Positions 3,141 through 26,270 of a DNA stretch of 32,000 nt are shown one piece after another. Location of the stretch: contig CP104013.1 of assembly GCA_025839675.1 (NCBI GenBank), forward strand, positions 3,960,001-3,992,000, given 5' to 3'. The notes under the pieces were generated by a model. That model saw only the letters and a program-made list of their open reading frames with translations, did no database searches and was not told where the DNA came from. How positions within the stretch are numbered: position 1 is the stretch's first letter; each line of letters begins with the position of its first letter. The translations under genes and the position numbers were made by a program. The stretch comes from Candidatus Lokiarchaeum ossiferum. Its GTDB lineage: Archaea; Asgardarchaeota; Lokiarchaeia; Sigyniarchaeales; Promethearchaeaceae.

Positions 3141-4430
3141 ATGATATTTATTGAAAATTCGGAATACACTTTCACAACTATAGAATCTATAGTCATGATC
3201 ATTTATGGAGGATTTATAATCTTGCTTTTAATGTTTGGATGGGATCTTTTGGGAAGATTCATAAAAGCAGATAAACGTATGCGGGGTGATCCTGCCTATA
3301 TGGTATTCTTCATAATTGCAGTTGCCATGTTGGGTTACGGTATTTATATGTTTCCCGCGTTGGTTGATTATTTCTTTGTAAGTGATTTGACGGGGGCAGA
3401 TAATGCTCTTCTATGGATCGTACCATTTAAATATGCCTTGATTTTATGTATGATCGTTCCTATTGCTTATGTTTGTCTGTTAATTCTTCTTAAAAATCGA
3501 AGAAGGATTGCTAATATTCTGGGGTTAATCGGTGTTTTACCCACAATCTACATTTTTATTATAACTATTATCACCGGCAATAATCCTTCGATCAACGTTG
3601 GATTTACATCACCATTGATACTACCAGTTGTAGCATTCATAGCGATTTTTGCAGTTATCGATTTTATCGGAATCGTTTATATATTGATCGTGGAACTTGC
3701 TCCCCAAAAAGAAGTGAGAAATCGTGTTTTGCTTGGAATTTTGGGCATCGTTATTGCAGGGATTGGTGGTTTTATTGAAGTTTCAAGTCGAGATTCTCTA
3801 ATTGATAATCCGGATAATTGGTGGTATGTATATGGGACATTTATTGAATTATTTGGATTCATTGTCATGCGCCATTTCTTCTTATCTATTCCATCCTATG
3901 ATGAATTTGCTTGGAAGAATGGAATGATTGAAATGCACGTAATCATCGCTGAAACTGGAATTTCTTTACATTATCAGTCATTTGCAGAATTGAAAGCTAA
4001 CGAGTTAAAGGGAGATATCAAAGTAACCGCAACCTTAGCTGAGAATGAAGCACGTCCAAATTCTGATCTTGTTGCAGGTGGTTTAGTGGGAATTAAAGGA
4101 ATGCTTGCTGAAATTTCAGGCGACCGTGGAAAATTAGAGAATATTGAAATTGGTGAAAAATCTCTTGTCTTTAAACAAGGAAAAACAATCCTCTGTTTAT
4201 TACTTGCAGATGAAAATTTGGGTGTTTATCATAGTTTACTTGATGATCTGGTGACAAGAATTGAAGAAGAACATCCTGGATTAGATAATTTCAATGGGGA
4301 TACACGAAAACTTCATATCGCTCCTATAGTGGAAGAAGTTTTTGATTTAACCAATCAAGGAATTTTAAAGAAAACAAAAAAGAAGAAGAAAAAATCTCTT
4401 CCTTCTAACACCTCTGAATCGGAAGTGTAA
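3141..4430 (+). CDS. polytopic membrane protein (about 7-8 TM) with a C-terminal soluble longin/roadblock-like alpha/beta domain and a poly-Lys tail
   Basis: The N-terminal ~250 aa consist of successive hydrophobic helices. The C-terminal ~170 aa show a beta-beta-alpha-beta-beta-beta-alpha pattern (MIEMHVIIAETGISLHYQSF / DLVAGGLVGIKGMLAEI / LENIEIGEKSLVFKQGKTILCLLLADEN / GVYHSLLDDLVTRIEEE). This pattern is typical of small-GTPase-partner folds. The protein ends in KKTKKKKKKS. The fold assignment is an inference. Confidence 0.6.
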   Translation: MIFIENSEYTFTTIESIVMIIYGGFIILLLMFGWDLLGRFIKADKRMRGDPAYMVFFIIAVAMLGYGIYMFPALVDYFFVSDLTGADNALLWIVPFKYALILCMIVPIAYVCLLILLKNRRRIANILGLIGVLPTIYIFIITIITGNNPSINVGFTSPLILPVVAFIAIFAVIDFIGIVYILIVELAPQKEVRNRVLLGILGIVIAGIGGFIEVSSRDSLIDNPDNWWYVYGTFIELFGFIVMRHFFLSIPSYDEFAWKNGMIEMHVIIAETGISLHYQSFAELKANELKGDIKVTATLAENEARPNSDLVAGGLVGIKGMLAEISGDRGKLENIEIGEKSLVFKQGKTILCLLLADENLGVYHSLLDDLVTRIEEEHPGLDNFNGDTRKLHIAPIVEEVFDLTNQGILKKTKKKKKKSLPSNTSESEV

Positions 4431-4478
4431 TATTTTTTTTAATTTCAATTTTAACCTAATTTAGCGGAAGAACAAGAA

Positions 4479-5690
4479 ATGAAAATTCCCGGGTCATTTT
4501 TCGAAGTACAATTGGTATTAAATGGCGAATTAATTGAATTTCAGATTTTAAATCGCGCCGTTGTTGAATATCAAATTTCAGTGATGGATTTTGAAGAAAT
4601 TGAATTTGATCTACCCGAATTTTTAGAGGAAAATCATGTAAGTTTACCAAAGAATCGACTAGAAAATGTATTGCAACAACTTGAAGGTGAGTATTTGGAA
4701 TTGCAACAACAACAAGAAAAAATACGACATCAACAGATGACACAATATCAACAGTCGCAACAAAATATAATTACTTACGAGTCACAAAAGGTTCTTTTAA
4801 TGGGAAGTAGTGGGAAATCATCTATTTATCAGGTAATTTTTGAAAGCAAATCCCCTTATGAAACTTTTTCTTTACCGCCAACTAAGAAAGTTATTAAACA
4901 TAATATAGAATTTGCTGCAATGACATCTGCAAGCCGAAAACAAAATTTAGCCATACTCGAAGCTGGCAGTGAATTTCCCGCACCTGAACATTTTGACCAA
5001 GCATCGATTTTACTCTTTATCATTGATGCTTTTGAAGTTTCCAACTACGAAAACATCCGCTACCAATTACATCAAGCAATCAAATTATTAAAATATCATG
5101 GCAAACGTCCCGCCCATCTACAAGATTCGCAAAGCAACATATTTTGCTTTATTCATAAAATGGATCTGTTTCCGAATTCCGCAGAACAATTTGAATCTCT
5201 TGTAAAATATTTCCGTTATGATCCAGAGGCCGATGCAGTCAATCTGGAAATTAACTTTTTCCCTACCTCCATTTTTGATTCTTCCATTTATAGTGCTTGG
5301 GCTAAAGTAGTTGAAGTAATGATGCCTAAATCTTCAAAACTCAATGCATTATCAAATCAACTCAAAGAAGCTCTCGGTTTATATGCTACTTTGATTATTG
5401 AAAAACGAACTGGATTGCCAATATGTGCTTCCAAGACTTTATTGGATGATTCTGTTTTAGTTGGAAGCACTAATCGGGTGTTAATCGCTATAGAAAAAGT
5501 ATTACCTGAGTATGAACTTGCAGGATTGAAAGATTTTAGAATTAATGCGGCGACTGGTGTCTTGGAAGTTAAACTTTTCCACCAATATTATATGTTGGTG
5601 CTATTGTATCCCCCTCATATTAATCTAAATGATGTGCATTCTCAAAAGAAGCTAACTGAATTTATTGAAACGATGCTAAATAGCATTTAG
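4479..5690 (+). CDS. Rag/Gtr1-family GTPase-like protein (G domain plus C-terminal roadblock-type domain) with a ~100-aa N-terminal extension
   Basis: Three blocks match remembered human RagA signatures. [18 protein letters not shown] matches [31 protein letters not shown] matches IFCLVHKMDLV, where HKMD replaces NKxD, a Rag/Gtr hallmark. [19 protein letters not shown] matches CFRTSIWDETLYKAWSSIV. These are followed by [16 protein letters not shown] (compare EVLLFERATFLVIS) at the start of the C-terminal domain. Confidence 0.8.
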   Translation: [403 protein letters not shown]

Positions 5691-5717
5691 ACATTTCTTT
5701 TACTCTGTGAAAATTTT

Positions 5718-8567
5718 ATGGAAACCAACAAAGAAATACAATTGTTATCCATTATTCTATCAATTTTTCAACAGTCAGATGCACATTTGAATTTTGGTAT
5801 TCATAAGATTTTAGGAAAATTTCGATCATCACTTAAGAAAAACCTTCTTAAGACGATTGATCTCAGCTTAATCCAGAATTCTATAGAGTTTTCCTCAAAA
5901 GAAAAAGAATTGTTCTGGGATCTGTTAATCGAGTTTTTTTCCTTATATTTTCCCAAAGGAAAATTATATAATATTCCAAAAAACCTGAATAATTCGATAG
6001 CTACGGATTTTTTTTTTCAATGGGTAAATGAAGATCAATATTATTACAAGATTGATGATTTTTATTTTAATTATCAAACTATTCTTGGCGATTTCCAAGT
6101 TTCTTTTGTCACATCGAAAGTAGAACTCGAAGATGGAGGAAAAAATAAACCAAAACGATATTTTATTCCTGCTTTGATTAATTCTCCAATAACATATTCG
6201 CCTGAAAATAGATCTTTTTCAATCAATTTTGAGTATAGGTCTTTGAATGAAGCAGAAAAAGAACTCTACAGTAGAAATTATCAAGCTAAAATTAATAAAT
6301 TTCTTTTTCGCTCCTTTCAAGAAAATTTTGGATCTCAGATTTTGACAACTGAAAATTTGGATAAATTATTCGCCTGTCTTGAAGAATTTACGTCTCAAAG
6401 GTACTCTGATAGGTTCATTCATCCTCATCTTCTTAATTATTTGCATGATCAAGCAAAGTCATTTATTATTGCAAATGTTCCTTTCCCAATTGTAACAAAT
6501 TGTGAAAATGGAGATAGTTTTCGGTATAATATTCTATATCAAGGCTTTATTCTTTCCTCTAACATAATAATCGAGCAAATCTGTTCCTTAGAAACTTTAA
6601 AAAAAAAACTCTATGAAAAAAAAAAATTTATAACAAAAACAGATCTAATCGTCCCTCTGAAATCTATTCCGACGGGTTATTATCCTGAAATTTTGAATAA
6701 TAAGATGCAGCAAAGAGATTGGCTGAACTTAGTTGGTTATTCTCTTTCCTCGATTGATTCTGATAACTTTTTGAAATCTGGAGTCATTAACAATTCAATT
6801 CCTTCGAACATTCAAAACCTACCTGTGAATACCGGTCTCTATTCGGGAAAAATTAGATATTCTCTTTTAAATGCCCTTAATAAGAAGGCCTCAAATTCTC
6901 ACAATTTGCTGATCAAGGGAGAAAATTGGCAGGTTTTGAATTTATTAAAGTCAAAATTTTTTCAGAAAATTAAAACAATTTATATTGATCCTCCCTATAA
7001 TACGGGTGCAAATGATTTTGTTTATAGTGATAATTTCCAGAAAGCTAGCTGGTTAACAATGATGCAAAATCGGTTGGAGCTTTCAAAATATTTGTTAAAA
7101 TCCGATGGGATCTTATTTTCTAGTATTGGGGATCATGAACTTCCAAATTATTCCTTGTTGTTGGAAAAGCTCTTTCCAAAGCGTTTAGACAATATTGTGT
7201 GGCACAAAAAAACCCAGCCTTCATACTTATCTCAGGAACTGATTTCTGTCACTGAATATATTTTAGCAGCCAAAAAACAAAATTCTCCCCTTAAATTAAT
7301 GGGAAGTTATGGAAATAAAAATAAATTGACCGAATTAATCAATATTGGAAATTCTCCTTGTAAAAGAATTTTTCCTAAAGAAAATATTTTTATTGCAAAT
7401 GGTTGGACTGGAATTTTACAAGCAGGGACCTATGGAAAAAATAAACTCAAAGTTGAGCTTTTAAACCCACAGATATCGGTAAATGAAGGTATTCCAGATG
7501 AAGATCTTATTTTGAAAAGTCGTTTTAAATGGGTGCAAGATCGAATTAATCATGAGCTAGATATTGGAGGTCAAATTCATATAAAAAGTATTAAATCTTT
7601 GCGACCCACAATTGCACGTTTTTATGATTCCCCTATAATTAAAGCTCCTACAACTCTACTCTCAAAAAAAGTGAACGACCTCCCAACAAATACAGATGCT
7701 AACGCTGAATTAAAAGCTCTTTTTCAGACCTCCCCTTTTGATTATTCCAAACCCTCAAAATTAATAAAATATTTAGTAAGATCCTCTACCTATTTTGATA
7801 AATCTGGGATTATTCTCGATTTTTTTGCGGGTTCTGGAACAACTGCTCAATCTATTATTGAATTAAATCAAGAAGATCAAGGTTCTCGCCAATATATTTT
7901 AATCGAAAAAGAACAATATTTTGAAAGCATTATTATTCCTCGAATTCAGAAGTTGATGTATTCTTCTACTTGGAAAGATGGTAAACCAGAATCTTTAACT
8001 GGATGCCCACACATTGCCAAAACCTTTCAAATTGAGCATTTTTGTGATACATTTCGCAATATCATTTTTTCAAATGAAATCTATCCAGAATATAAAACAC
8101 CACAATCGGGAAAAAAATTTCTTAAATATGTTATAAACATGGATGATATAACTTCTTCCCTTAATCTTAACATTACAGAATTTGACGATCCCTTTAGTTA
8201 TTATATGATCTCTTCTCAAAATGGAATAATGTCTGAAGTAAATCTTGATTTGGTGGAAACCTTCAATTTTCTTCTGGGGATAGATGTAAATTCCCACGAG
8301 TATTTCGAAGAACAAAACCGTGCTTATCAAATTGTGTCGGGCACGATATTGCCTTTGAATTCATCTCAGAAGCATAATTTGGAATTGATCTTAATTATTT
8401 GGAGAACTACAAAGGATCTTGATAGAAAAAAAGAATCTCACTTTCTAACCAAAAATTATCTCACTCAGCAAAAATTTGCACAAATCTATTTTAATGGAGT
8501 CTCTACAATTCCAAATGGAAAGGTGCTGGATAAATTGTTTTTAAAATTAATGTTTGAAGACTTATGA
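5718..8567 (+). CDS. DNA methyltransferase, beta-class (N6-adenine/N4-cytosine), Type III Mod-like, with a large unassigned N-terminal region
   Basis: Motif IV is IYIDPPYNTG (DPPY at nt 6987-6998) and is followed by SWLTMMQNRLELSKYLLKSDGILFSSIGDHE, typical of Type III Mod and N4/N6 MTases. Motif I is ILDFFAGSGTTAQS (nt 7818-7844), about 275 aa downstream. The order IV...TRD...I defines the beta class. About 420 aa before motif IV and about 230 aa after motif I have no signature I recognise. Confidence 0.85.
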   Translation: METNKEIQLLSIILSIFQQSDAHLNFGIHKILGKFRSSLKKNLLKTIDLSLIQNSIEFSSKEKELFWDLLIEFFSLYFPKGKLYNIPKNLNNSIATDFFFQWVNEDQYYYKIDDFYFNYQTILGDFQVSFVTSKVELEDGGKNKPKRYFIPALINSPITYSPENRSFSINFEYRSLNEAEKELYSRNYQAKINKFLFRSFQENFGSQILTTENLDKLFACLEEFTSQRYSDRFIHPHLLNYLHDQAKSFIIANVPFPIVTNCENGDSFRYNILYQGFILSSNIIIEQICSLETLKKKLYEKKKFITKTDLIVPLKSIPTGYYPEILNNKMQQRDWLNLVGYSLSSIDSDNFLKSGVINNSIPSNIQNLPVNTGLYSGKIRYSLLNALNKKASNSHNLLIKGENWQVLNLLKSKFFQKIKTIYIDPPYNTGANDFVYSDNFQKASWLTMMQNRLELSKYLLKSDGILFSSIGDHELPNYSLLLEKLFPKRLDNIVWHKKTQPSYLSQELISVTEYILAAKKQNSPLKLMGSYGNKNKLTELINIGNSPCKRIFPKENIFIANGWTGILQAGTYGKNKLKVELLNPQISVNEGIPDEDLILKSRFKWVQDRINHELDIGGQIHIKSIKSLRPTIARFYDSPIIKAPTTLLSKKVNDLPTNTDANAELKALFQTSPFDYSKPSKLIKYLVRSSTYFDKSGIILDFFAGSGTTAQSIIELNQEDQGSRQYILIEKEQYFESIIIPRIQKLMYSSTWKDGKPESLTGCPHIAKTFQIEHFCDTFRNIIFSNEIYPEYKTPQSGKKFLKYVINMDDITSSLNLNITEFDDPFSYYMISSQNGIMSEVNLDLVETFNFLLGIDVNSHEYFEEQNRAYQIVSGTILPLNSSQKHNLELILIIWRTTKDLDRKKESHFLTKNYLTQQKFAQIYFNGVSTIPNGKVLDKLFLKLMFEDL

Positions 8568-8572
8568 AATAT

Positions 8573-9163
8573 TTATTCTAAATTTTTAAAAATAAATTGT
8601 ATTTTTTCATTCCAAAGTCCCTTCTTCTTTAAAAACGCTTGAATAAGTTCCAACTTTTTAAGATCCATTTGAGCTACTTCGAAATCTTCCTTCGTTTTAT
8701 AAAATAAAAGAAATCCGTCGGCGATTTCTTCAAAAGATGCCTTAATTCCAAGAATTTCAATAATTTTGAATGTAAAATTGTAATTTTGCCGGATTATCTC
8801 TTTGTAATTTGTTCGGTATTTGACAATCAAATATAGGTCATTCTCTTCTAGATCTTCTTCATCATAAAAATCTTTGGGGGTAGGTTTTGTGAGTACAGTT
8901 TCGAGGAGATTTGCATAATCTGAAACATTTTCCTGGATCAATTGGTAAAATTTTTCATAAATTTTTTTTTCTCCATGGTATGTGTTTTGGAAATCTCTCT
9001 CGGATTTATATTCAACAAAAATTTTCATATTTTCTCCATTTTCAATGAAATTTACTTGAGAATTGTTACCTCCCTCTGCTTTTTGCTGCAGAAATTTAAG
9101 AATTTCCTTTTTTGGGTCTTGAGAGTGAACAATACTAACTTCAATAAATGGCAGCGATTTCAC
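8573..9163 (-). CDS. hypothetical acidic cytosolic protein
   Basis: 196-aa ORF convergent with the methyltransferase gene. It has no recognisable motifs and no hydrophobic segments. It is called as coding on length and on the absence of a competing ORF. Confidence 0.5.
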   Translation of the reverse strand: MKSLPFIEVSIVHSQDPKKEILKFLQQKAEGGNNSQVNFIENGENMKIFVEYKSERDFQNTYHGEKKIYEKFYQLIQENVSDYANLLETVLTKPTPKDFYDEEDLEENDLYLIVKYRTNYKEIIRQNYNFTFKIIEILGIKASFEEIADGFLLFYKTKEDFEVAQMDLKKLELIQAFLKKKGLWNEKIQFIFKNLE

Positions 9164-9228: not shown

Positions 9229-9516
9229 TTGTTATTAGTGAGGAAAAAGATAGTTACCCTAGCGATGGGTACTGGTACTGAACTAAATCGTAAAAATTTA
9301 ACGATCGATAAGAAGAATATTGTTAATTATATATCACCTGAATTACAAGAAGCATTGGAACTTGCCAAATTGGGGGATTTGCGACATTCTCAAATAATAT
9401 CTGAATTAAAAGAGAAAATTAATGCAAATTTAGTGCAAGGTGAAAATGAAAATGTGAAGTCACGCCTCAAATTGAAATTATTGCGGTATCTTTATAATAT
9501 GGAGGGGAATCTGTAA
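9229..9516 (+). CDS. small hypothetical protein, start uncertain (TTG 9229, GTG 9238 or ATG 9265)
   Basis: 95-aa ORF whose TAA stop (9514-9516) overlaps the ATG of the next gene (9516) in a TAATG arrangement, which suggests translational coupling. A GGGAG lies just upstream (9221-9225). Confidence 0.45.
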   Translation: MLLVRKKIVTLAMGTGTELNRKNLTIDKKNIVNYISPELQEALELAKLGDLRHSQIISELKEKINANLVQGENENVKSRLKLKLLRYLYNMEGNL

Positions 9517-10802
9517 TGGATGTTAAAAAGATTCAGTCTGATGTTGTAGTTGTGGGGGGTGGATTTTCTGGAATGAATATCGCACGAATTCTCTCTCAAA
9601 ATGGTTTATCGTGCAATCTTATCTCAGGTGGGTATGGAGCATCTGAATTTTGGAATGGAACTGTTGATCTTCTTAATTATCCTGGTGATAATATTGAACT
9701 CGAGTTAGCCAAATTTCAAGTTTCTATTAAAGATCATCCCTATGCTAAATTAAGTTTGAAGGACATCCAAAATTCTCTCATTGAATTTAATCGAGACTTT
9801 ACGAAGCTTAGTATTTTCCAAGAAGATGATAAGCTTGTTAATAGGCATGTCATCACACCACTGGGGACGACAAAATTATGTGTTGGTAATTGGAATTCGA
9901 TTTTTTCTACCTATAAAGATTTTACGCTCGATACGAAGTGTTTATTAATAGAGTTCGCGGAATTTCCAAATTCAACTGCTCCATTAGTTTCCCTTGGGCT
10001 AAAAGAAACTTTTCCTGGGCAATTTAATGTATTAACAATCAACCTTGCAACAGTATTTAGTTTGATGAATTCTGAATTTACTGAATATTTAGAAGAAGGA
10101 AAATTATCCGCTCTTAATTTGGCCGAATTTTTTGATGAAAAAGTTCTCCACTTAGCGCCGGTGGCCGAGATTATCAAAAAAGAATTTGAACTGCAATTTC
10201 CAGATCTTAAATTCGAGGAATTAACTCATTTTCTATTTCCTGCTGTAATGGGGTTAGAACATACGCAAACAATTTTGAACAACTTAAGTACATTTCTTAA
10301 TACTGAATGTTGGGAATTTTTAGTATTCACGCCAACCGTCCTTGCAAACCGTCTTATCAATAAAATGGAAAGAAAGCTCGAAATTGCGGGTGCAATCAAC
10401 GATCATTCCAAAATCTTAGTTGATTTGACATCTGAAGAAAGCGTTCATAAGTGGAATTGTCATATAAGAAATTCAGATGGAGAAATAACCATTCTAAATT
10501 CGAAATATGTGATTTTTGCCACGGGTTCGATTTTTCTCCATGGATTTTTTAGAGATCAACTTAAGATGGCCAATCAATTTCTTTCTTTAGGGTTAGATTT
10601 TCCTGAATCCTTGAATCCTCATTTTGAAATTATTTCATCTCATGCCAACTCAAATATTTTTGTCGTGGGTTCTGCAATATTTCATTTTTCTACGAATCTT
10701 GGGGAAGATGATGAAATTCAAGATGGTACTGGTCTTGGTATGGCAATAGCGACGAGTTTTAAGGTTGCTCAAGAAATAATTGCCAGAGAAAAGACGAATT
10801 AA
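9516..10802 (+). CDS. FAD-binding oxidoreductase of the GlpB family (anaerobic glycerol-3-phosphate dehydrogenase subunit B-like)
   Basis: The N-terminal Rossmann motif is VVVVGGGFSGMNIARILSQNGLSCNLISGGYGASEFWNGTVDLL, colinear with remembered E. coli GlpB [44 protein letters not shown]. Further colinear blocks are HPYAKL (HPYSLL), ITPLGT (ITPLGT), VIFATGSIF (AVLASGSFF) and FVVGSAI (FAIGSVL). Its length is similar to GlpB (~420 aa). Confidence 0.7.
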   Translation: MDVKKIQSDVVVVGGGFSGMNIARILSQNGLSCNLISGGYGASEFWNGTVDLLNYPGDNIELELAKFQVSIKDHPYAKLSLKDIQNSLIEFNRDFTKLSIFQEDDKLVNRHVITPLGTTKLCVGNWNSIFSTYKDFTLDTKCLLIEFAEFPNSTAPLVSLGLKETFPGQFNVLTINLATVFSLMNSEFTEYLEEGKLSALNLAEFFDEKVLHLAPVAEIIKKEFELQFPDLKFEELTHFLFPAVMGLEHTQTILNNLSTFLNTECWEFLVFTPTVLANRLINKMERKLEIAGAINDHSKILVDLTSEESVHKWNCHIRNSDGEITILNSKYVIFATGSIFLHGFFRDQLKMANQFLSLGLDFPESLNPHFEIISSHANSNIFVVGSAIFHFSTNLGEDDEIQDGTGLGMAIATSFKVAQEIIAREKTN

Positions 10803-10867
10803 CGGTTTTTTCCTATTTTTGCATTTTTATTCGATTTTTTGATTTATAACAATAAAAAATAGCTACC

Positions 10868-10875
10868 TATAAATA
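10868..10875 (+). promoter_or_regulatory. TATA-box-like element (TATAAATA) positioned to drive + strand transcription into the repeat array
   Basis: TATAAATA sits about 25-30 nt upstream of the first repeat unit (10898). Both flanking genes end here, so neither needs a promoter in this spacer. TATA-like strings are common in AT-rich DNA, so confidence is low. Confidence 0.25.
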
Positions 10876-10897
10876 CTTGAAGTGAATATATATGTTT

Positions 10898-11290
10898 GCC
10901 CAATATCAATGGAAATACGATTTACCATTTCTTGGGTGAATGTACGAAATTGAGTTTGCTTTAATAGGAATAAATGTCGGAAATTTGTTACTAAAGGAAT
11001 AAATGGTGTTGCAGCTCAATAGAATCTGTATTGGTTTGTCCGAAATTGAGTTATAGGAATAAATGTCGGAAATTTGTTACTAAAGGAATAAATGATGTAA
11101 AAACTCAATCGAAATCTGTAATTGTTTGTACGAAATTGAGTCAATTATTAATAATTTGGATGTTGTCGAGACTCAATAGAAATCTGTAATTGTTTGTAGG
11201 TCGTACGAAAATTGGGTCAGTATTAAATATGCGAAAATGAAGTTGGAACCCAATCGAAATCTGTAAGGAATTTAGTTGGTACCCATTTGT
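10898..11290 (+). repeat. array of five related units with inverted-repeat ends (ACTCAAT...ATTGAGT hairpins), plus an embedded 46-nt direct repeat
   Basis: The units are: 10898-10955 (degenerate); 11014-11051 (gCTCAATagaatctgtattggtttgtccgaaATTGAGt); 11103-11141 (ACTCAATcgaaatctgtaattgtttgtacgaaATTGAGT); 11171-11217 (ACTCAAT...ATTGGGT, a G-U-compatible change); and 11248-~11290 (ACCCAAT..., degenerate). The 46-nt direct repeat ataggaataaatgtcggaaatttgttactaaaggaataaatgRtgt occurs at 10964-11009 and 11053-11098 with one mismatch and an 89-nt period. Confidence 0.8.
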
Positions 11291-11309
11291 AATCGCTTTA
11301 TTCGGCGAA

Positions 11310-11357
11310 CCCTATGAGACGTCGTACTCTTTGAGGCGGCGTCGAGGGATTTTTTTT
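11310..11357 (+). terminator. GC-rich stem-loop followed by T8 (candidate + strand terminator / 3' end structure)
   Basis: CCCT(11310-13)...AGGG(11345-48) and GACGTCG(11318-24)/CGGCGTC(11337-43, one G-U pair) form a two-tier stem. TTTTTTTT follows at 11350-11357. On the minus strand the tract reads A8, so the structure is oriented for a + strand transcript. It is by far the most GC-rich patch in this spacer. Confidence 0.45.
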
Positions 11358-11367
11358 ATTCTTTACT

Positions 11368-12363
11368 TCATTCTATAGAAAATTTATAATCTATCCAAGG
11401 AAGATTCTTTTCTAACATTGGTTTCCATGCTGCTACTGCTTGCTGAGACCAATCATCCTCTTCTATGGATAATTCATAAACTAAAGTGCAAAATAAGCTA
11501 ATATGGCGTAATTGAACAAATTTTGAGATTCTCTCTAACCATACATCACCAGTTGGATTAACTTCCAGATAACCTTTGATAAAAGCAGGATAAAATTCCT
11601 GAATCACTTGATTTCGGCTCTTTTCTGCTGTAGAAAAGCGCCAAGCTACATGAAAGAGCACTATCGCCATATCGGAAATGAACCAATCGTATTGGCAATC
11701 ATCAAAATCAATTACTGTTAAATTGCCTCCGTTGATAAATAGGTTTGCATCATGGAGATCAAAGTGTACTAACCCAAAAGTATCCTCATTTTGAGGGAAT
11801 GAACGAATTTCTTCTATCAATTGAATAGCATTTGTTAGAATTATTGGATGATCTTTTAAAATCTCCCTAATATTTCGAAGTACATGTTCTTGATCCCACG
11901 TTTGTCTTCGAACTTCAGGTGGTTGCATTGGATATTGTTTGGTTGCTAAGTGCATTTTTGCAAGGGTTTTTCCCCACAAATATTTGACCTCATCTGTCAA
12001 TAACTCTGGACAATCTCCAATGATGCATCCTTCTAGTTTTTCAAATAAAACTGCGTAGAACGCGGAATTACTTAATTGGTATTTAACAATAAAATCTCCA
12101 TTATTTGCCGTAACGGGAACACATGTTGGGATATTTTGAGTTTGAAGAAAATTAATCCAATTGATTTCAGCAGTAATTTCTTCTTTAGATCTATAGGAAC
12201 TGTGAGAAATTCGGAGAATGAAGGAGTTTTGATCTCGTTCTGCTTCATAAATAAAATTTTCAGTCGTTTCCATTTCAGTTATTTTTTCAAAAGGGATTCT
12301 ATATTCTTGTGCGATTTTTCTAAGAACTTCCACTGTTAAATACTTTTCAATTCCAACTTTCAT
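11368..12363 (-). CDS. phosphotransferase of the APH / choline-kinase-like (protein-kinase-like fold) family
   Basis: The catalytic loop LVHFDLHDANLFI (HxDxxxxN) and the metal-binding VIDFDD motif are separated by the usual ~15 aa. The 331-aa size is typical. Confidence 0.8.
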   Translation of the reverse strand: MKVGIEKYLTVEVLRKIAQEYRIPFEKITEMETTENFIYEAERDQNSFILRISHSSYRSKEEITAEINWINFLQTQNIPTCVPVTANNGDFIVKYQLSNSAFYAVLFEKLEGCIIGDCPELLTDEVKYLWGKTLAKMHLATKQYPMQPPEVRRQTWDQEHVLRNIREILKDHPIILTNAIQLIEEIRSFPQNEDTFGLVHFDLHDANLFINGGNLTVIDFDDCQYDWFISDMAIVLFHVAWRFSTAEKSRNQVIQEFYPAFIKGYLEVNPTGDVWLERISKFVQLRHISLFCTLVYELSIEEDDWSQQAVAAWKPMLEKNLPWIDYKFSIE

Positions 12364-17685: not shown

Positions 17686-18516
17686 TTAACTATTAAAATC
17701 AGAGGTCCGAGGGGCTCCAAAATTATATGACGGCTTGAGTTTTGCCTCCTTCGCCTGTTGTTCATCGGGGGAATTCACTGCGTAAATACTTCGGAATTTT
17801 GCGTTTATTAACGGAAAATGAGTTGTTCGGAAAAATGCTATCCCTAAAATAATAATTCCTAAGTAAAGGATAAAACTGAAGACTTTTTGAACAAAACCAC
17901 TCATATAAAAGGGAAAGAATGGACAAAAAGCATAGTAATTGAAAAAAAATAGAATTAAACCAATAGTGAGAAAATGGCTATAATGTTTAATCTGGGGTGT
18001 TTTCTTTGAAGTCAAAAATATGATTGTACAGAGAATTGGGAGCAAAATAATCTCAAAAAATCCAATATTTCGATTGTTCATAACAGCAAAAACAGCTCCC
18101 AGAGTAATCAATTTCAATCCAAATAAAATAATTACACCCTTTGATAATTTTCCATTTGTCTTGTTATATAACAACTTCATATCAATTTGATAAACAAGAA
18201 TAATTGTACATAATATGTCAAGAATCAATGATGACATTTTGTAAAAGTAAGAAATTCGTCCAAGTCTTGAAAAAATCACAATTTCTGTCCATATAATCAT
18301 TTGTTCATCCATGGTAAGGTTAGAAAAAAAGTTTGAAGAAAAAATTCCAATTATAATCTTACAAATATTTAGAAGTAGCACAATTAAAAATTGTTTCATT
18401 AAAGATTTTGAGCAATGTTCTGCTAGTTTTACTTTTGAATATAGCACTCCATACCCAATCGAAAAAAGAATCAGAATGATCAGACAAATTAAGTCGAAGA
18501 TAAAATTAGGATACAT
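17686..18516 (-). CDS. polytopic membrane protein, unknown function
   Basis: 276-aa ORF with about 8 hydrophobic helices and no recognisable motif. Confidence 0.55.
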   Translation of the reverse strand: MYPNFIFDLICLIILILFSIGYGVLYSKVKLAEHCSKSLMKQFLIVLLLNICKIIIGIFSSNFFSNLTMDEQMIIWTEIVIFSRLGRISYFYKMSSLILDILCTIILVYQIDMKLLYNKTNGKLSKGVIILFGLKLITLGAVFAVMNNRNIGFFEIILLPILCTIIFLTSKKTPQIKHYSHFLTIGLILFFFNYYAFCPFFPFYMSGFVQKVFSFILYLGIIILGIAFFRTTHFPLINAKFRSIYAVNSPDEQQAKEAKLKPSYNFGAPRTSDFNS

Positions 18517-18632
18517 ATTGTTTTTTGCCTCGTAACAAAAGTTAGAAGGAAAATGATATAATATTTTCTAAATCCAGAATAATCAGGTACATTATTAGTG
18601 TGGAAATATTAAAAAAAAAATAAAAAAGGTTC

Positions 18633-19352
18633 TTAGTAGGAATGTGCAATTAAATAAGTGCGAGCTGAATCATGGATTTCGCTCGGAGCACAAGCCCAAA
18701 AGTAGTCTGAACCACTCCAGCCAGGATCCGCATCGATAGTATTGGTGTTAGAATCACTGTTGTCATAATCGTAATCCCATGGATTGCCTGGGGCACCATC
18801 CATTGCCCAATCGTAAGCTTTGGCACATAATTCTGAGCAATACATGGATTTGTAAGTGCTCATTCCATATAGGTAATTATAATCATATTCCGTTTTGGAC
18901 CCCCATTTCCAGGTCGTACGGAACCATGATGTTTCCCATGCTCCCGTGGCGTATGCATTGGCATATTCAATTACTTTTGATCGAATCCAATCCGTAACTC
19001 CTGTAACTCTTAACAATTCAGCTTCATCTGCCTTATTCAATCGAGATACATCATTAAAGACTACTCCATCAGGGGTGGCTTCAATACAAAAATATCCCCA
19101 ATGGGAATATTCGGCTTCAGCATCATAATGATATGACCATCCAAGATAAATTGCTGAATGATCCCAATGACCCGGGATTAAATCAGTATATTTACCTCCT
19201 GCAGTGAGAATTATATCACCTGGGAGGGATAATCCTACTATGTTTAGTGCGTTTCCATCTCCTTCATCCCCTAAAGCAGCACCAAAATCCATAAAGGAGA
19301 ACAGAACAACCATAAACATTGCGCTTACAATTAATTTTCGGTTTAATTTCAT
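18633..19352 (-). CDS. secreted permuted papain-fold (NlpC/P60 superfamily, YaeF/YiiX C92-like) amidase/peptidase
   Basis: There is an N-terminal signal-like segment (KLIVSAMFMVVLFSFMDFGAALG). The motifs GDIILT...HWDHSAIYLG...CIEATPDGVV...MYCSELCAKAY place His before Cys, as in the permuted C92 family. Confidence 0.65.
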   Translation of the reverse strand: MKLNRKLIVSAMFMVVLFSFMDFGAALGDEGDGNALNIVGLSLPGDIILTAGGKYTDLIPGHWDHSAIYLGWSYHYDAEAEYSHWGYFCIEATPDGVVFNDVSRLNKADEAELLRVTGVTDWIRSKVIEYANAYATGAWETSWFRTTWKWGSKTEYDYNYLYGMSTYKSMYCSELCAKAYDWAMDGAPGNPWDYDYDNSDSNTNTIDADPGWSGSDYFWACAPSEIHDSARTYLIAHSY

Positions 19353-25681: not shown

Positions 25682-26103
25682 GTAAAAAACCCTTAAAAAA
25701 ATAATCTTTTTTATAGCGTTAATGATCTATAGTGAATCTGGTTTTATCAAATTTTCTCTATTTTTAATAATTTTGCGTTTTTTTTTGTTATCGATTTCAA
25801 TATTTGCTATTTGTACTGATTAATTTCTAACTAATTTCTACTTTTTAAATGTTTAAAACGAATTTATTATACACTCCGCTCGATATGGATAAATTCTTAA
25901 TGTTTGAGTAATTTAAAGTAGAGTAAATTAGATTGTTTTAATAAACTTCCCGATGAAGACACTTTTTTGGAAGCTTTCGAAAAAATAAATATATATACTA
26001 TTGCCGATATTATGATCCTACAAGCAATACACAATTGTGGTATTAAATAGCGCGACGATATATATAGTTGATTAATAGTTTTATTAGATATAAAAAGTGA
26101 ATA

Positions 26104-26256
26104 ATGGTGATGGTCGAAACTGAAACGATACTTCGAGATAAGATATGCCCCAAATGTGGATCGAAAATGAATTATCGTCGCAGAGTGTCAAGCAACCGTC
26201 TTCTTACATTACTTCAGTGTTCAGTGTGTCGGCATTACTTGGTAATAGATAATTAA
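26104..26256 (+). CDS. small zinc-ribbon protein (50 aa), below the ORF-track cutoff
   Basis: My translation is MVMVETETILRDKICPKCGSKMNYRRRVSSNRLLTLLQCSVCRHYLVIDN*. It has CPxCG...CxxC with 20-residue spacing. It sits in an otherwise unexplained 590-bp spacer and is preceded by TATA-like AT-rich sequence. Confidence 0.45.
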   Translation: MVMVETETILRDKICPKCGSKMNYRRRVSSNRLLTLLQCSVCRHYLVIDN

Positions 26257-26270
26257 AAGTGATATGACAA

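Follow-up and report, generated by a model that had tools for sequence, protein, structure and literature searches.

A modular array in a convergent spacer of Candidatus Lokiarchaeum ossiferum is a candidate non-coding RNA gene

Layout of the convergent spacer

Candidatus Lokiarchaeum ossiferum is among the very few cultured Asgard archaea, and the Asgards are the closest known prokaryotic relatives of eukaryotes. We analyzed a 32,000-nt stretch of its genome (the window; G+C content 33.5%), in which a spacer of 565 nt (10803–11367) separates two convergent genes. We lean, by a little, toward the proposal that this spacer holds a stand-alone, unannotated non-coding RNA gene of about 460 nt on the + strand, a candidate multivalent binding platform. 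That the spacer is a conserved functional element of some kind is very probable from its comparison between genomes, and that the element acts as a + strand RNA is probable.

On the left of the spacer, an open reading frame (ORF) with a FAD_binding_2 domain, GlpB according to NCBI, occupies 9516–10802 on the + strand, and its stop codon is at the spacer's left edge. The GlpB-like protein matches a Ca. L. ossiferum entry at 100% identity. On the right, an APH phosphotransferase ORF, called the kinase below, occupies 11368–12363 on the − strand and has its stop codon at the right edge. The initial annotation of this DNA had stated that both flanking genes end here, and they do. The coding content of the window is otherwise ordinary: a Gtr1/RagA-type GTPase, a type III-like DNA methyltransferase, the FAD oxidoreductase, the APH-family kinase, an MFS transporter and CorA. 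The spacer was compared in three genomes of two species, namely the L. ossiferum window, L. ossiferum strain B36, and a second Lokiarchaeum species (the sister species), and the orthologous loci were found through a protein search with the kinase.

On module parsing, the 565-nt spacer is a single degenerate tandem array. Read on the + strand, it has a 5′ hairpin module, short modules of 29 nt alternating with long, hairpin-bearing modules of 60–77 nt, a terminal module, two GC-rich hairpins, and a run of eight T's (T8). The 5′ hairpin module, H5, spans 10892–10973. It is followed by the short module S1 (10974–11002, 29 nt, ATGTCGGAAATTTGTTACTAAAGGAATAA), which aligns with four short modules of the sister species (nhmmer E = 2e-6), and by the long module L1 (11003–11062), with a stem at 11013–11020/11045–11052, the loop AGAAUCUGUAUUGGUUUGUCCGAA, and a sister ortholog that is 87% identical. 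Parsing and nhmmer both identify the next short module, S2 (11063–11091), as an identical copy of S1. The long module L2 (11092–11159) is the consensus unit; its stem is at 11103–11109/11135–11141, its loop is CGAAAUCUGUAAUUGUUUGUACGAA, and its ortholog is 91% identical. L3 (11160–11236) has its stem at 11170–11177/11211–11218, with a U-G pair due to the variant arm ATTGGGT, and an 8-nt insertion in the loop. The L3 ortholog (sp2_L4) retains ATTGGGT, and its outermost pair is changed from G-C to A-U. Module parsing places the terminal module, T, at 11237–11357. It begins with the 5′ half of a long module (11237–11284), which has a shifted closing stem, CCAAU (11250–11254)/GUUGG (11275–11279).

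A short module (ATGNNGNNAGTTTGTTAATAAAGGAATAA) corresponds to a long module minus its hairpin, and the conserved repeat block starts 5′ of the stem, at ATGNNGT(C). The 46-nt direct repeat reported in the initial annotation is present, at 10964–11009 and 11053–11098, and consists of one short module plus linker. The five hairpin-ended units ACTCAAT...ATTGAGT that had also been proposed fare less well, since related units are present and just three of them are canonical. What had been taken as the first unit is a different hairpin (10896–10939) followed by an orphan 3′ arm, and the fifth is a 5′ half only, with the shifted closing stem. The orphan arm, GTACGAAATTGAGT (10942–10955, + strand), lacks a canonical 5′ partner of its own; it may pair with ATCAAT at 10908–10913 or, in the following long module, with the 5′ arm. 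Three of the four copies of ATTGAGT in the 32-kb window lie in the spacer, as do two of the six copies of ACTCAAT.

Could the array be CRISPR-like (clustered regularly interspaced short palindromic repeats), with acquired spacers processed into small guide RNAs, as the initial annotation had considered? Like a CRISPR array, it has direct repeats (39–48 nt) with terminal dyad symmetry, intervals of 29–30 nt, degenerate end units including the last repeat, and an A/T-rich upstream region. However, the intervals, which had been described as unique, share homology among themselves and with the ends of the 46-nt repeat. They are also conserved in position and sequence, as the whole spacer of B36 differs by 4 substitutions and the second species has the intervals in the same order. 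The repeats are only 69–90% identical to the reference copy. No cas domains were found in window ORFs of at least 100 aa, nor in the seven nearest ORFs (PADLOC), in agreement with the earlier statement that no cas genes are nearby, and no viral contig exactly matched the one interval segment that was tested. The L. ossiferum B35 and B36 genomes have been reported to be without CRISPR arrays (preprint 10.64898/2026.02.13.705702). Because the supposed spacers are homologous and conserved, we take the CRISPR reading to be refuted, with barely a trace of probability left to it.

Conservation of the spacer

In strain B36 (CP163304.1, a 6.27-Mb chromosome; locus L076), the kinase is 98% identical and the gene order is shared. 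The B36 spacer is also 565 nt long, and its 4 substitutions (10895 T>A, 11008 G>A, 11178 A>C and 11227 A>G) include none in the stems. The second species is represented by a 19-kb ENA contig (locus L077) with shared synteny, on which the kinase is 75.5% and GlpB 90% identical in amino acid sequence. Its spacer is 673 nt long and keeps, in order, a TAGCTACC-TATAAATA-NTTGAAGTGAAT block, the 5′ hairpin, the modules, the terminal module, an AUUUGUA sequence, the GC-rich hairpins, and T8.

Conservation of the spacer is the main evidence for a functional element. The predicted transcript is 88.5% identical between the two species (393/444 aligned positions), compared with 79–83% for the flanking coding DNA and 46.7% for four-fold degenerate sites (n = 1292). 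The terminal module with the 3′ hairpins reaches 95% identity, and the 5′ hairpin module 93%. Because lenient penalties brought even shuffled sequence to about 75% identity, the alignment was repeated with strict ones. Under the strict penalties, the other long spacers of the block are 64%, 71% and 83% identical, compared with 88.5% for this one. As judged from these alignments, the comparison shows stronger constraint on the spacer element than on the adjacent protein genes.

Orthologous long modules are 85–91% identical between the species, whereas paralogous ones are 70–81% identical. Since orthologs are closer than paralogs, the array must be older than the species split, and its modules have been kept singly rather than homogenised. 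The number of modules differs, with 3 long and 2 short in L. ossiferum and 4 long and 4 short in the sister species, but the grammar is unchanged. Compared with the sister species, L. ossiferum is without one short-plus-long pair and one more short module, and the indel breakpoints of these differences fall in the repeated ATGNTGTC.

Copy number may also vary within cultures. In Logan contigs from SRR32148621-23, the sequence agrees with the window at 100% identity, but the contigs end at the array's edges (10935–10938 and 11279/11298), whereas contigs from SRR22273277 break instead at the 46-nt repeat (10993/11065). The breaks in SRR32148621-23 may reflect an array copy-number variant in those cultures, or low coverage.

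It might be argued that the array has no function of its own and is a neutral minisatellite, formed by tandem duplication where no gene lies and kept by chance. An origin by duplication and unequal recombination fits this idea, as does the absence of the element from more distant Lokiarchaeia and the lack of any copy found elsewhere. However, an identity of 88–95% in the face of 47% at four-fold sites, exceeding that of the flanking coding DNA, would not be anticipated for a neutral repeat, nor would the retention of every module individually as an ortholog or the invariance of the promoter and terminator. We therefore consider this explanation very unlikely.

The element was not found near distant GlpB homologs (46–49% identity), where the upstream synteny is kept and the next gene follows 30–45 nt after GlpB, nor near distant kinase homologs (43–48% identity), where the gene contexts differ. 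It appears to be restricted to the genus Lokiarchaeum as far as sampled. A third GlpB, 79% identical, occurs in the same metagenome as the sister species, on a 1418-nt contig (ENA ERZ26802894, locus L080), split into ORFs of 172 aa and 246 aa. This contig stops within T-tracts, 53 nt past the stop codon of this GlpB, which is short of where the RNA element would lie.

Predicted promoter and terminator

As the host is an Asgard archaeon, we read promoter and terminator signals by archaeal rules. An archaeal TATA box lies about 25 nt upstream of the transcription start. In the spacer, a promoter block, TAGCTACC-TATAAATA-CTTGAAGTGAAT (10860–10890, + strand), is almost invariant in the three genomes. 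The putative TATA box within it, TATAAATA at 10868–10875, resembles the TATA-like sequences 5′ of the window's genes and is the box that the initial annotation had placed upstream of its first unit. The segment containing the promoter (10846–10897) is 88% identical to that of the sister species, compared with 74% for the T-tract segment before it. Applying the usual archaeal TATA-to-start distance, we predict a start of transcription near G10898 (10896–10900, + strand), which is 23 nt after the TATA box.

The predicted transcript would open with the 5′ hairpin of H5 (10896–10939, + strand), which has the stems UUGCCCAA/UUGGGUGA and AAUGG/CCAUU and a folding energy of −11.8 kcal/mol. Both stems are intact in the sister species, which has a 9-nt insertion in the apical loop, and the segment is 93% identical. 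Near the 3′ end, on the same strand, an invariant single-stranded AUUUGUA (11285–11291) lies between two hairpins; its core, UUUGU, recurs in short modules as well as in long-module loops. Two GC-rich hairpins follow, UCGCU/GGCGA (11293–11308) and CCCU...AGGG (11310–11348), with an energy of −23.3 kcal/mol and z = −2.5. Of their 28 predicted pairs, 27 are retained in all three genomes. These hairpins show no covariation because their sequence hardly varies.

The hairpins are followed by T8 (11350–11357), an oligo-U terminator for the + strand whose end is 10 nt short of the convergent kinase's stop codon. The initial annotation had pointed out the GC-rich stem-loop and the T run, and both hold up. 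T8 is invariant in the three genomes, and identity falls to 50% in the next 10 nt. Termination in archaea is directed by U-tracts, or oligo-T in the DNA (PMC8716108). In the window, T-tracts lie just 3′ of the stop codon of most genes, and the GlpB-like gene is followed at once by four of them (10806–10811, 10816–10820, 10824–10828 and 10835–10840, + strand). By their position, these tracts, in the segment 10806–10840, are the terminator of the upstream GlpB-like gene. Given that GlpB has its own T-tracts 500 nt upstream, T8 must serve a different + strand transcript.

The kinase differs from most genes of the window in this respect, as it has no oligo-T after its stop codon (11340–11368, − strand) in either species. 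For transcription reading through from the kinase, the first conserved oligo-T is at 10858–10853, a run of A6 on the + strand (T6 on the − strand; A5 in the sister species), past the entire array. The functional molecule could accordingly be the − strand, either as a 3′ untranslated region of about 510 nt of the MFS-kinase operon or as an RNA processed from it. Its repeat motif would be UUAUUCCUUUA, a CU-rich seed resembling an anti-Shine-Dalgarno sequence, which could pair with the ribosome-binding sites of other mRNAs. The strand is also not identifiable from sequence conservation alone. However, the invariant TATA box, and T8 with its preceding GC hairpins, face the + strand. Furthermore, the stem variants that form G-U pairs on the + strand are A-C mismatches on the − strand (7 mismatches versus 2), and the − strand has a far weaker fold, −70.8 against −104.7 kcal/mol. 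For these reasons, we consider a − strand function unlikely.

Folding and choice of strand

None of the three large indels between the species disrupts a stem, as all of them are confined to hairpin loops. Their sizes are 9 nt for the 5′ hairpin, 4–18 nt for the long-module loops, and 15 nt for the terminal hairpin, whose loop is shortened by this deletion in the sister species while its stem is kept. For the 8-bp stem of the long modules, 96.9% of the cells are paired. Read on the + strand, the variants of this stem amount to 7 G-U pairs and 2 mismatches; on the − strand, the numbers are reversed, with 2 G-U pairs and 7 mismatches. One pair is changed on both sides, from G-C to A-U, and the core stem has three independent changes compatible with G-U pairing. 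The ATTGGGT arm of L3 was offered in the initial annotation as a G-U pair that is expected if RNA structure is under selection. The pair is present and the direction is right, but as an argument for selection it is statistically weak. An inner stem within the loop (UGUA/UACG) was considered and rejected, as it is broken in L1. We favor a + strand RNA because of the orientation of the TATA box and T8, the stable 3′ double hairpin, the confinement of indels to loops, and the G-U asymmetry.

A number of results weigh against this proposal of a + strand RNA gene. The changes in the core stem comprise just three independent events, and the covariation is not significant, as 261 of 500 shuffles reach the observed score. 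Shuffled sequence folds about as stably as the unit hairpins (z from −0.3 to −1.8) and as the whole region (z = −0.66); the 3′ end alone beats shuffled sequence, with z = −2.5. The register of pairing is ambiguous as well. Because one sequence is common to all arms, a 3′ arm has two possible 5′ partners, in its own unit and in the next one, and the partition-function fold mixes own-arm pairing with pairing to the next unit or to a long-range arm. Variant bases and partition-function folding both failed to separate own-arm from next-unit pairing. As the kinase has no T-tract 3′ of its stop codon, its transcript probably continues in antisense across the repeats. The element is carried by three genomes that represent two species only. 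Finally, the motif likenesses discussed below, to a Shine-Dalgarno sequence with AUG and to a U-rich site, are our own reading, and the partners named from them are candidates only.

The poor showing of the RNA fold against shuffled sequence would also be accounted for if the element acts as DNA, either as protein-binding iterons or inverted repeats with a regulatory, segregation or replication role, or as weak tandem promoters. The stems are conserved as sequence, beyond what mere pairing needs, CGAAAT is repeated in direct orientation, and the short modules have, as we read them, TATA-like A/T boxes about 18–23 nt before each hairpin. On the other hand, the window contains no orc1/cdc6, partition or recombinase gene and no switch of GC skew. 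A TATA box at one border and a strong, conserved GC hairpin with T8 at the opposite one fit a transcript, the indels respect the RNA hairpin loops, and the G-U asymmetry agrees with this. A DNA element is thus distinctly unlikely. A replication origin or dif site was rejected, given the lack of a skew switch and of orc1/cdc6 or Xer genes in the vicinity; integrase, reverse-transcriptase and orc1/cdc6 domains were not found in window ORFs.

Short reading frames in the modules

At the module junctions on the + strand, GGAATAAATG, which looks like a Shine-Dalgarno sequence with a start codon, occurs four times (10967–10976, 10996–11005, 11056–11065 and 11085–11094), and degenerate versions are present at 11153–11162 and 11230–11239. 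The sister species has eight to nine copies of GGAATAAATG. The RNA might then be a polycistronic array of micro-ORFs, in which peptides of 2–17 codons, or their translation, are the function. Each module opens with AUG after AAGGA-AUAA, and the AUG is kept in all modules. The real genes of the window have GGAGG, GAGGA or AAGGA 5–10 nt before the start codon, and two of the four B35/B36 substitutions would be synonymous (GTG>GTA and AGA>CGA). However, two long modules reach a stop at codon 3–4 (ATGATGTAA, ATGATGTCGTAA), a 1-nt indel between the species shifts the frame of the terminal-module ORF (MKLEPNRNL versus MKLDPIESW), and the short modules, with 29 or 30 nt, break the frame. The longest ORF has 20 aa in L. 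ossiferum, whereas that of the sister species has 43 aa. In addition, the first conserved ATG (10892) is upstream of the predicted start of transcription. Peptides or their translation as the function thus seem very improbable.

The modules (11003–11266; L077 5870–6542) also combine UGUA, AAUAAA and a GU-rich sequence (GUUUGU), which is reminiscent of eukaryotic cleavage and polyadenylation signals. This likeness is most likely coincidental, in a 33% G+C genome and a duplicated array.

Database searches and rejected identities

A scan against Rfam, which had been recommended in the initial annotation, gave no matches for the window at the gathering score. A relaxed scan (E ≤ 10) of the spacers of both species gave only chance-level matches, with E of 1 or more, and ARAGORN found no tRNA or tmRNA. 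The recommended search for relatives gave no dispersed copies; the orthologs in B36 and the second species came from the kinase search. No further copies of the unit were found in the 32-kb window, at the orthologous loci, or in the 610 kb of sequence searched. The unit-core pattern gave 48 single matches in species-representative genomes, about the chance estimate and none extending into the unit (the complete L. ossiferum genome was not confirmed to be among the genomes scanned), and 11 single matches in metagenomes, again at chance level with none extending into the unit. Viral contigs gave 4 chance matches to this pattern and no matches to the gapped unit pattern, the core of the 46-nt repeat, the 3′ tail, or the 5′ hairpin. 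A look-up of a 52-aa small ORF returned no record. A literature search covering non-coding RNAs and transcription start data of L. ossiferum, as well as sponge RNAs of archaea, yielded only the report that the strains lack CRISPR arrays and general background on SmAPs (Sm-like archaeal proteins) and terminators. No described family matches the element, and repeat-built regulatory RNA is, as a kind, known from bacteria, with no archaeal example found in the literature searched.

A type III toxin–antitoxin RNA of the ToxI kind has, like the spacer, tandem short RNA repeats ending in a terminator hairpin. However, the Lokiarchaeum repeats vary from 29 to 77 nt rather than being near-identical units of about 36 nt. 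This identity was rejected, as no gene for an endoribonuclease toxin follows on the same strand; the next gene is the convergent APH-family kinase.

Archaeal C/D box sRNAs require the boxes C (RUGAUGA), D (CUGA), C′ and D′ at guide spacings of about 12 nt. They are likewise small archaeal RNA units, and the start of one module (AUGAUGU) resembles a C box. We rejected this candidate as well: the G-A of the putative C box varies (AUGGUGU, AUGUUGU, AUGAAGU), and there is no correctly spaced CUGA D/D′ box. Reading the units as H/ACA or k-turn elements failed, as the boxes and G-A pairs are missing and no k-turn signature lies beside the stem.

Clustered short units with inverted ends between convergent genes are also typical of repetitive extragenic palindromes and bacterial interspersed mosaic elements (REP/BIME) or of miniature inverted-repeat transposable elements (MITE). 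Unlike these, the element has no further copy in the sequence searched, and the position and order of its units are fixed between the species. A pseudogene remnant was rejected, as a six-frame comparison with the rest of the window and with the relatives' loci gave nothing.

Proposed model of the RNA

Among the proposals of the initial annotation, the multi-hairpin + strand non-coding RNA of about 460 nt is thus the one that gains support, as the promoter box, modules, 3′ hairpins, and T8 are conserved and the identity is above that of the flanking genes. In the model, transcription begins about 23 nt past the conserved TATA box, near 10898, and stops at T8 (11357), so that the transcript would measure about 460 nt in L. 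ossiferum; for the sister species, the estimate is about 575 nt. The RNA would have four parts. The first is the 5′ hairpin. The second would be the tandem long modules, in which a 7–8-bp stem, ACUCAAU/AUUGAGU, displays the loop CGAAAUCUGUA...UUUGU.CGAA. The third comprises the A-rich short modules, which contain UUUGU and end in UAAAGGAAUAAAUG, and the fourth would be made up of the terminal hairpin, the invariant AUUUGUA, and the two GC-rich hairpins. The array arose by duplication and unequal recombination before the species split, with every module retained afterwards.

What would be the function of such an RNA? It may display the same short motifs 4–9 times and so titrate or assemble an RNA-binding factor. 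Many copies of short motifs, as in a multivalent RNA, are found in its loops and linkers: the loop motif CGAAAUCUGUA has 3–4 copies here and 4 in the sister species (5 counting a truncated copy in the terminal module), GGAAUAAAUG has 4 copies here versus 8–9, and UUUGU has 6 versus 7. The stand-alone status of the gene is taken from the TATA box and T8. From this analysis, a multivalent platform or decoy mechanism can be put forward only tentatively, as a possibility well short of even.

One candidate partner would be a U-rich-binding Sm-like protein, and another the small ribosomal subunit or a regulator of translation start, which might be reached through the mimicry of a Shine-Dalgarno sequence with AUG. 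We infer that AUUUGUA resembles a U-rich binding site of Sm proteins or Sm-like archaeal proteins (SmAPs). SmAPs bind sequences rich in uridine, and a set of three smAP genes is reported to be typical for the TACK and Asgard groups (PMC12817955). In its boldest form, the model would make this the first Asgard sponge or scaffold RNA, evolving by gain and loss of modules and titrating Sm-like proteins or small ribosomal subunits, with each module showing an Sm-site-like A/GUUUGU and a start-site mimic, AAGGA-AUAA-AUG. This form is doubtful, and we hold it to be rather unlikely; if true, the RNA would set global post-transcriptional activity.

The closest parallels come from bacterial repeat RNAs: CsrB and RsmZ titrate CsrA, and CrcZ titrates Hfq/Crc. 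Like these RNAs, the element would be a stand-alone RNA of a few hundred nucleotides with its own predicted promoter and terminator. It has many imperfect copies of short motifs in hairpin loops and single-stranded linkers, and the copy number varies between related species while the motif is kept. The differences are that the host here is an archaeon, that there is no sequence similarity and no Rfam match, and that CsrA is bacterial. The motifs also differ, being the CGAAAUCUGUA loop, the UAAAGGAAUAAAUG linker, and UUUGU.

The locus is thus a candidate RNA gene with clear predicted ends, and its modular design suggests multivalent binding. If it is expressed, it would provide a handle on post-transcriptional regulation in the Lokiarchaeum lineage, and a natural case of an RNA that alters its valency through module duplication. 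If it is not expressed, the conservation still flags an uncharacterised functional DNA element.

Other observations around the locus

The other long "non-coding" stretch of the window (25682–26270) holds a 50-aa ORF (26104–26256, + strand) with two CxxC pairs (MVMVETETILRDKICPKCGSK...QCSVCRHYLVIDN), so that spacer is partly coding. From its sequence, the ORF probably encodes a small zinc-ribbon protein.

In distant Lokiarchaeia, a 541-aa DAO-domain protein, GlpA-like, precedes GlpB (4379–6004 in both locus L061 and locus L063). At this position, L. ossiferum (9229–9516, + strand) and the sister species have only an ORF of 81–95 aa. The GlpA-like partner subunit thus seems to have been lost or truncated in these two species.

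Farther upstream, the block at 3141–9163 of the window contains a 429-aa protein, the Gtr1/RagA-type GTPase, the type III-like DNA methyltransferase (949 aa), and a 196-aa protein on the opposite strand. This block is syntenic across Lokiarchaeia (L061, L063 and L077), down to about 47% identity of the neighboring GlpB. Judged by this synteny, the eukaryote-like GTPase and the methyltransferase appear to form an unusual conserved pairing.

Finally, B36 has an extra 451-aa gene with no Pfam match (L076 2286–3641) between a C92-peptidase-like gene and a 276-aa gene, which are 116 nt apart in the window (18516–18633). On this comparison, the 451-aa gene is a strain-specific insertion in B36.

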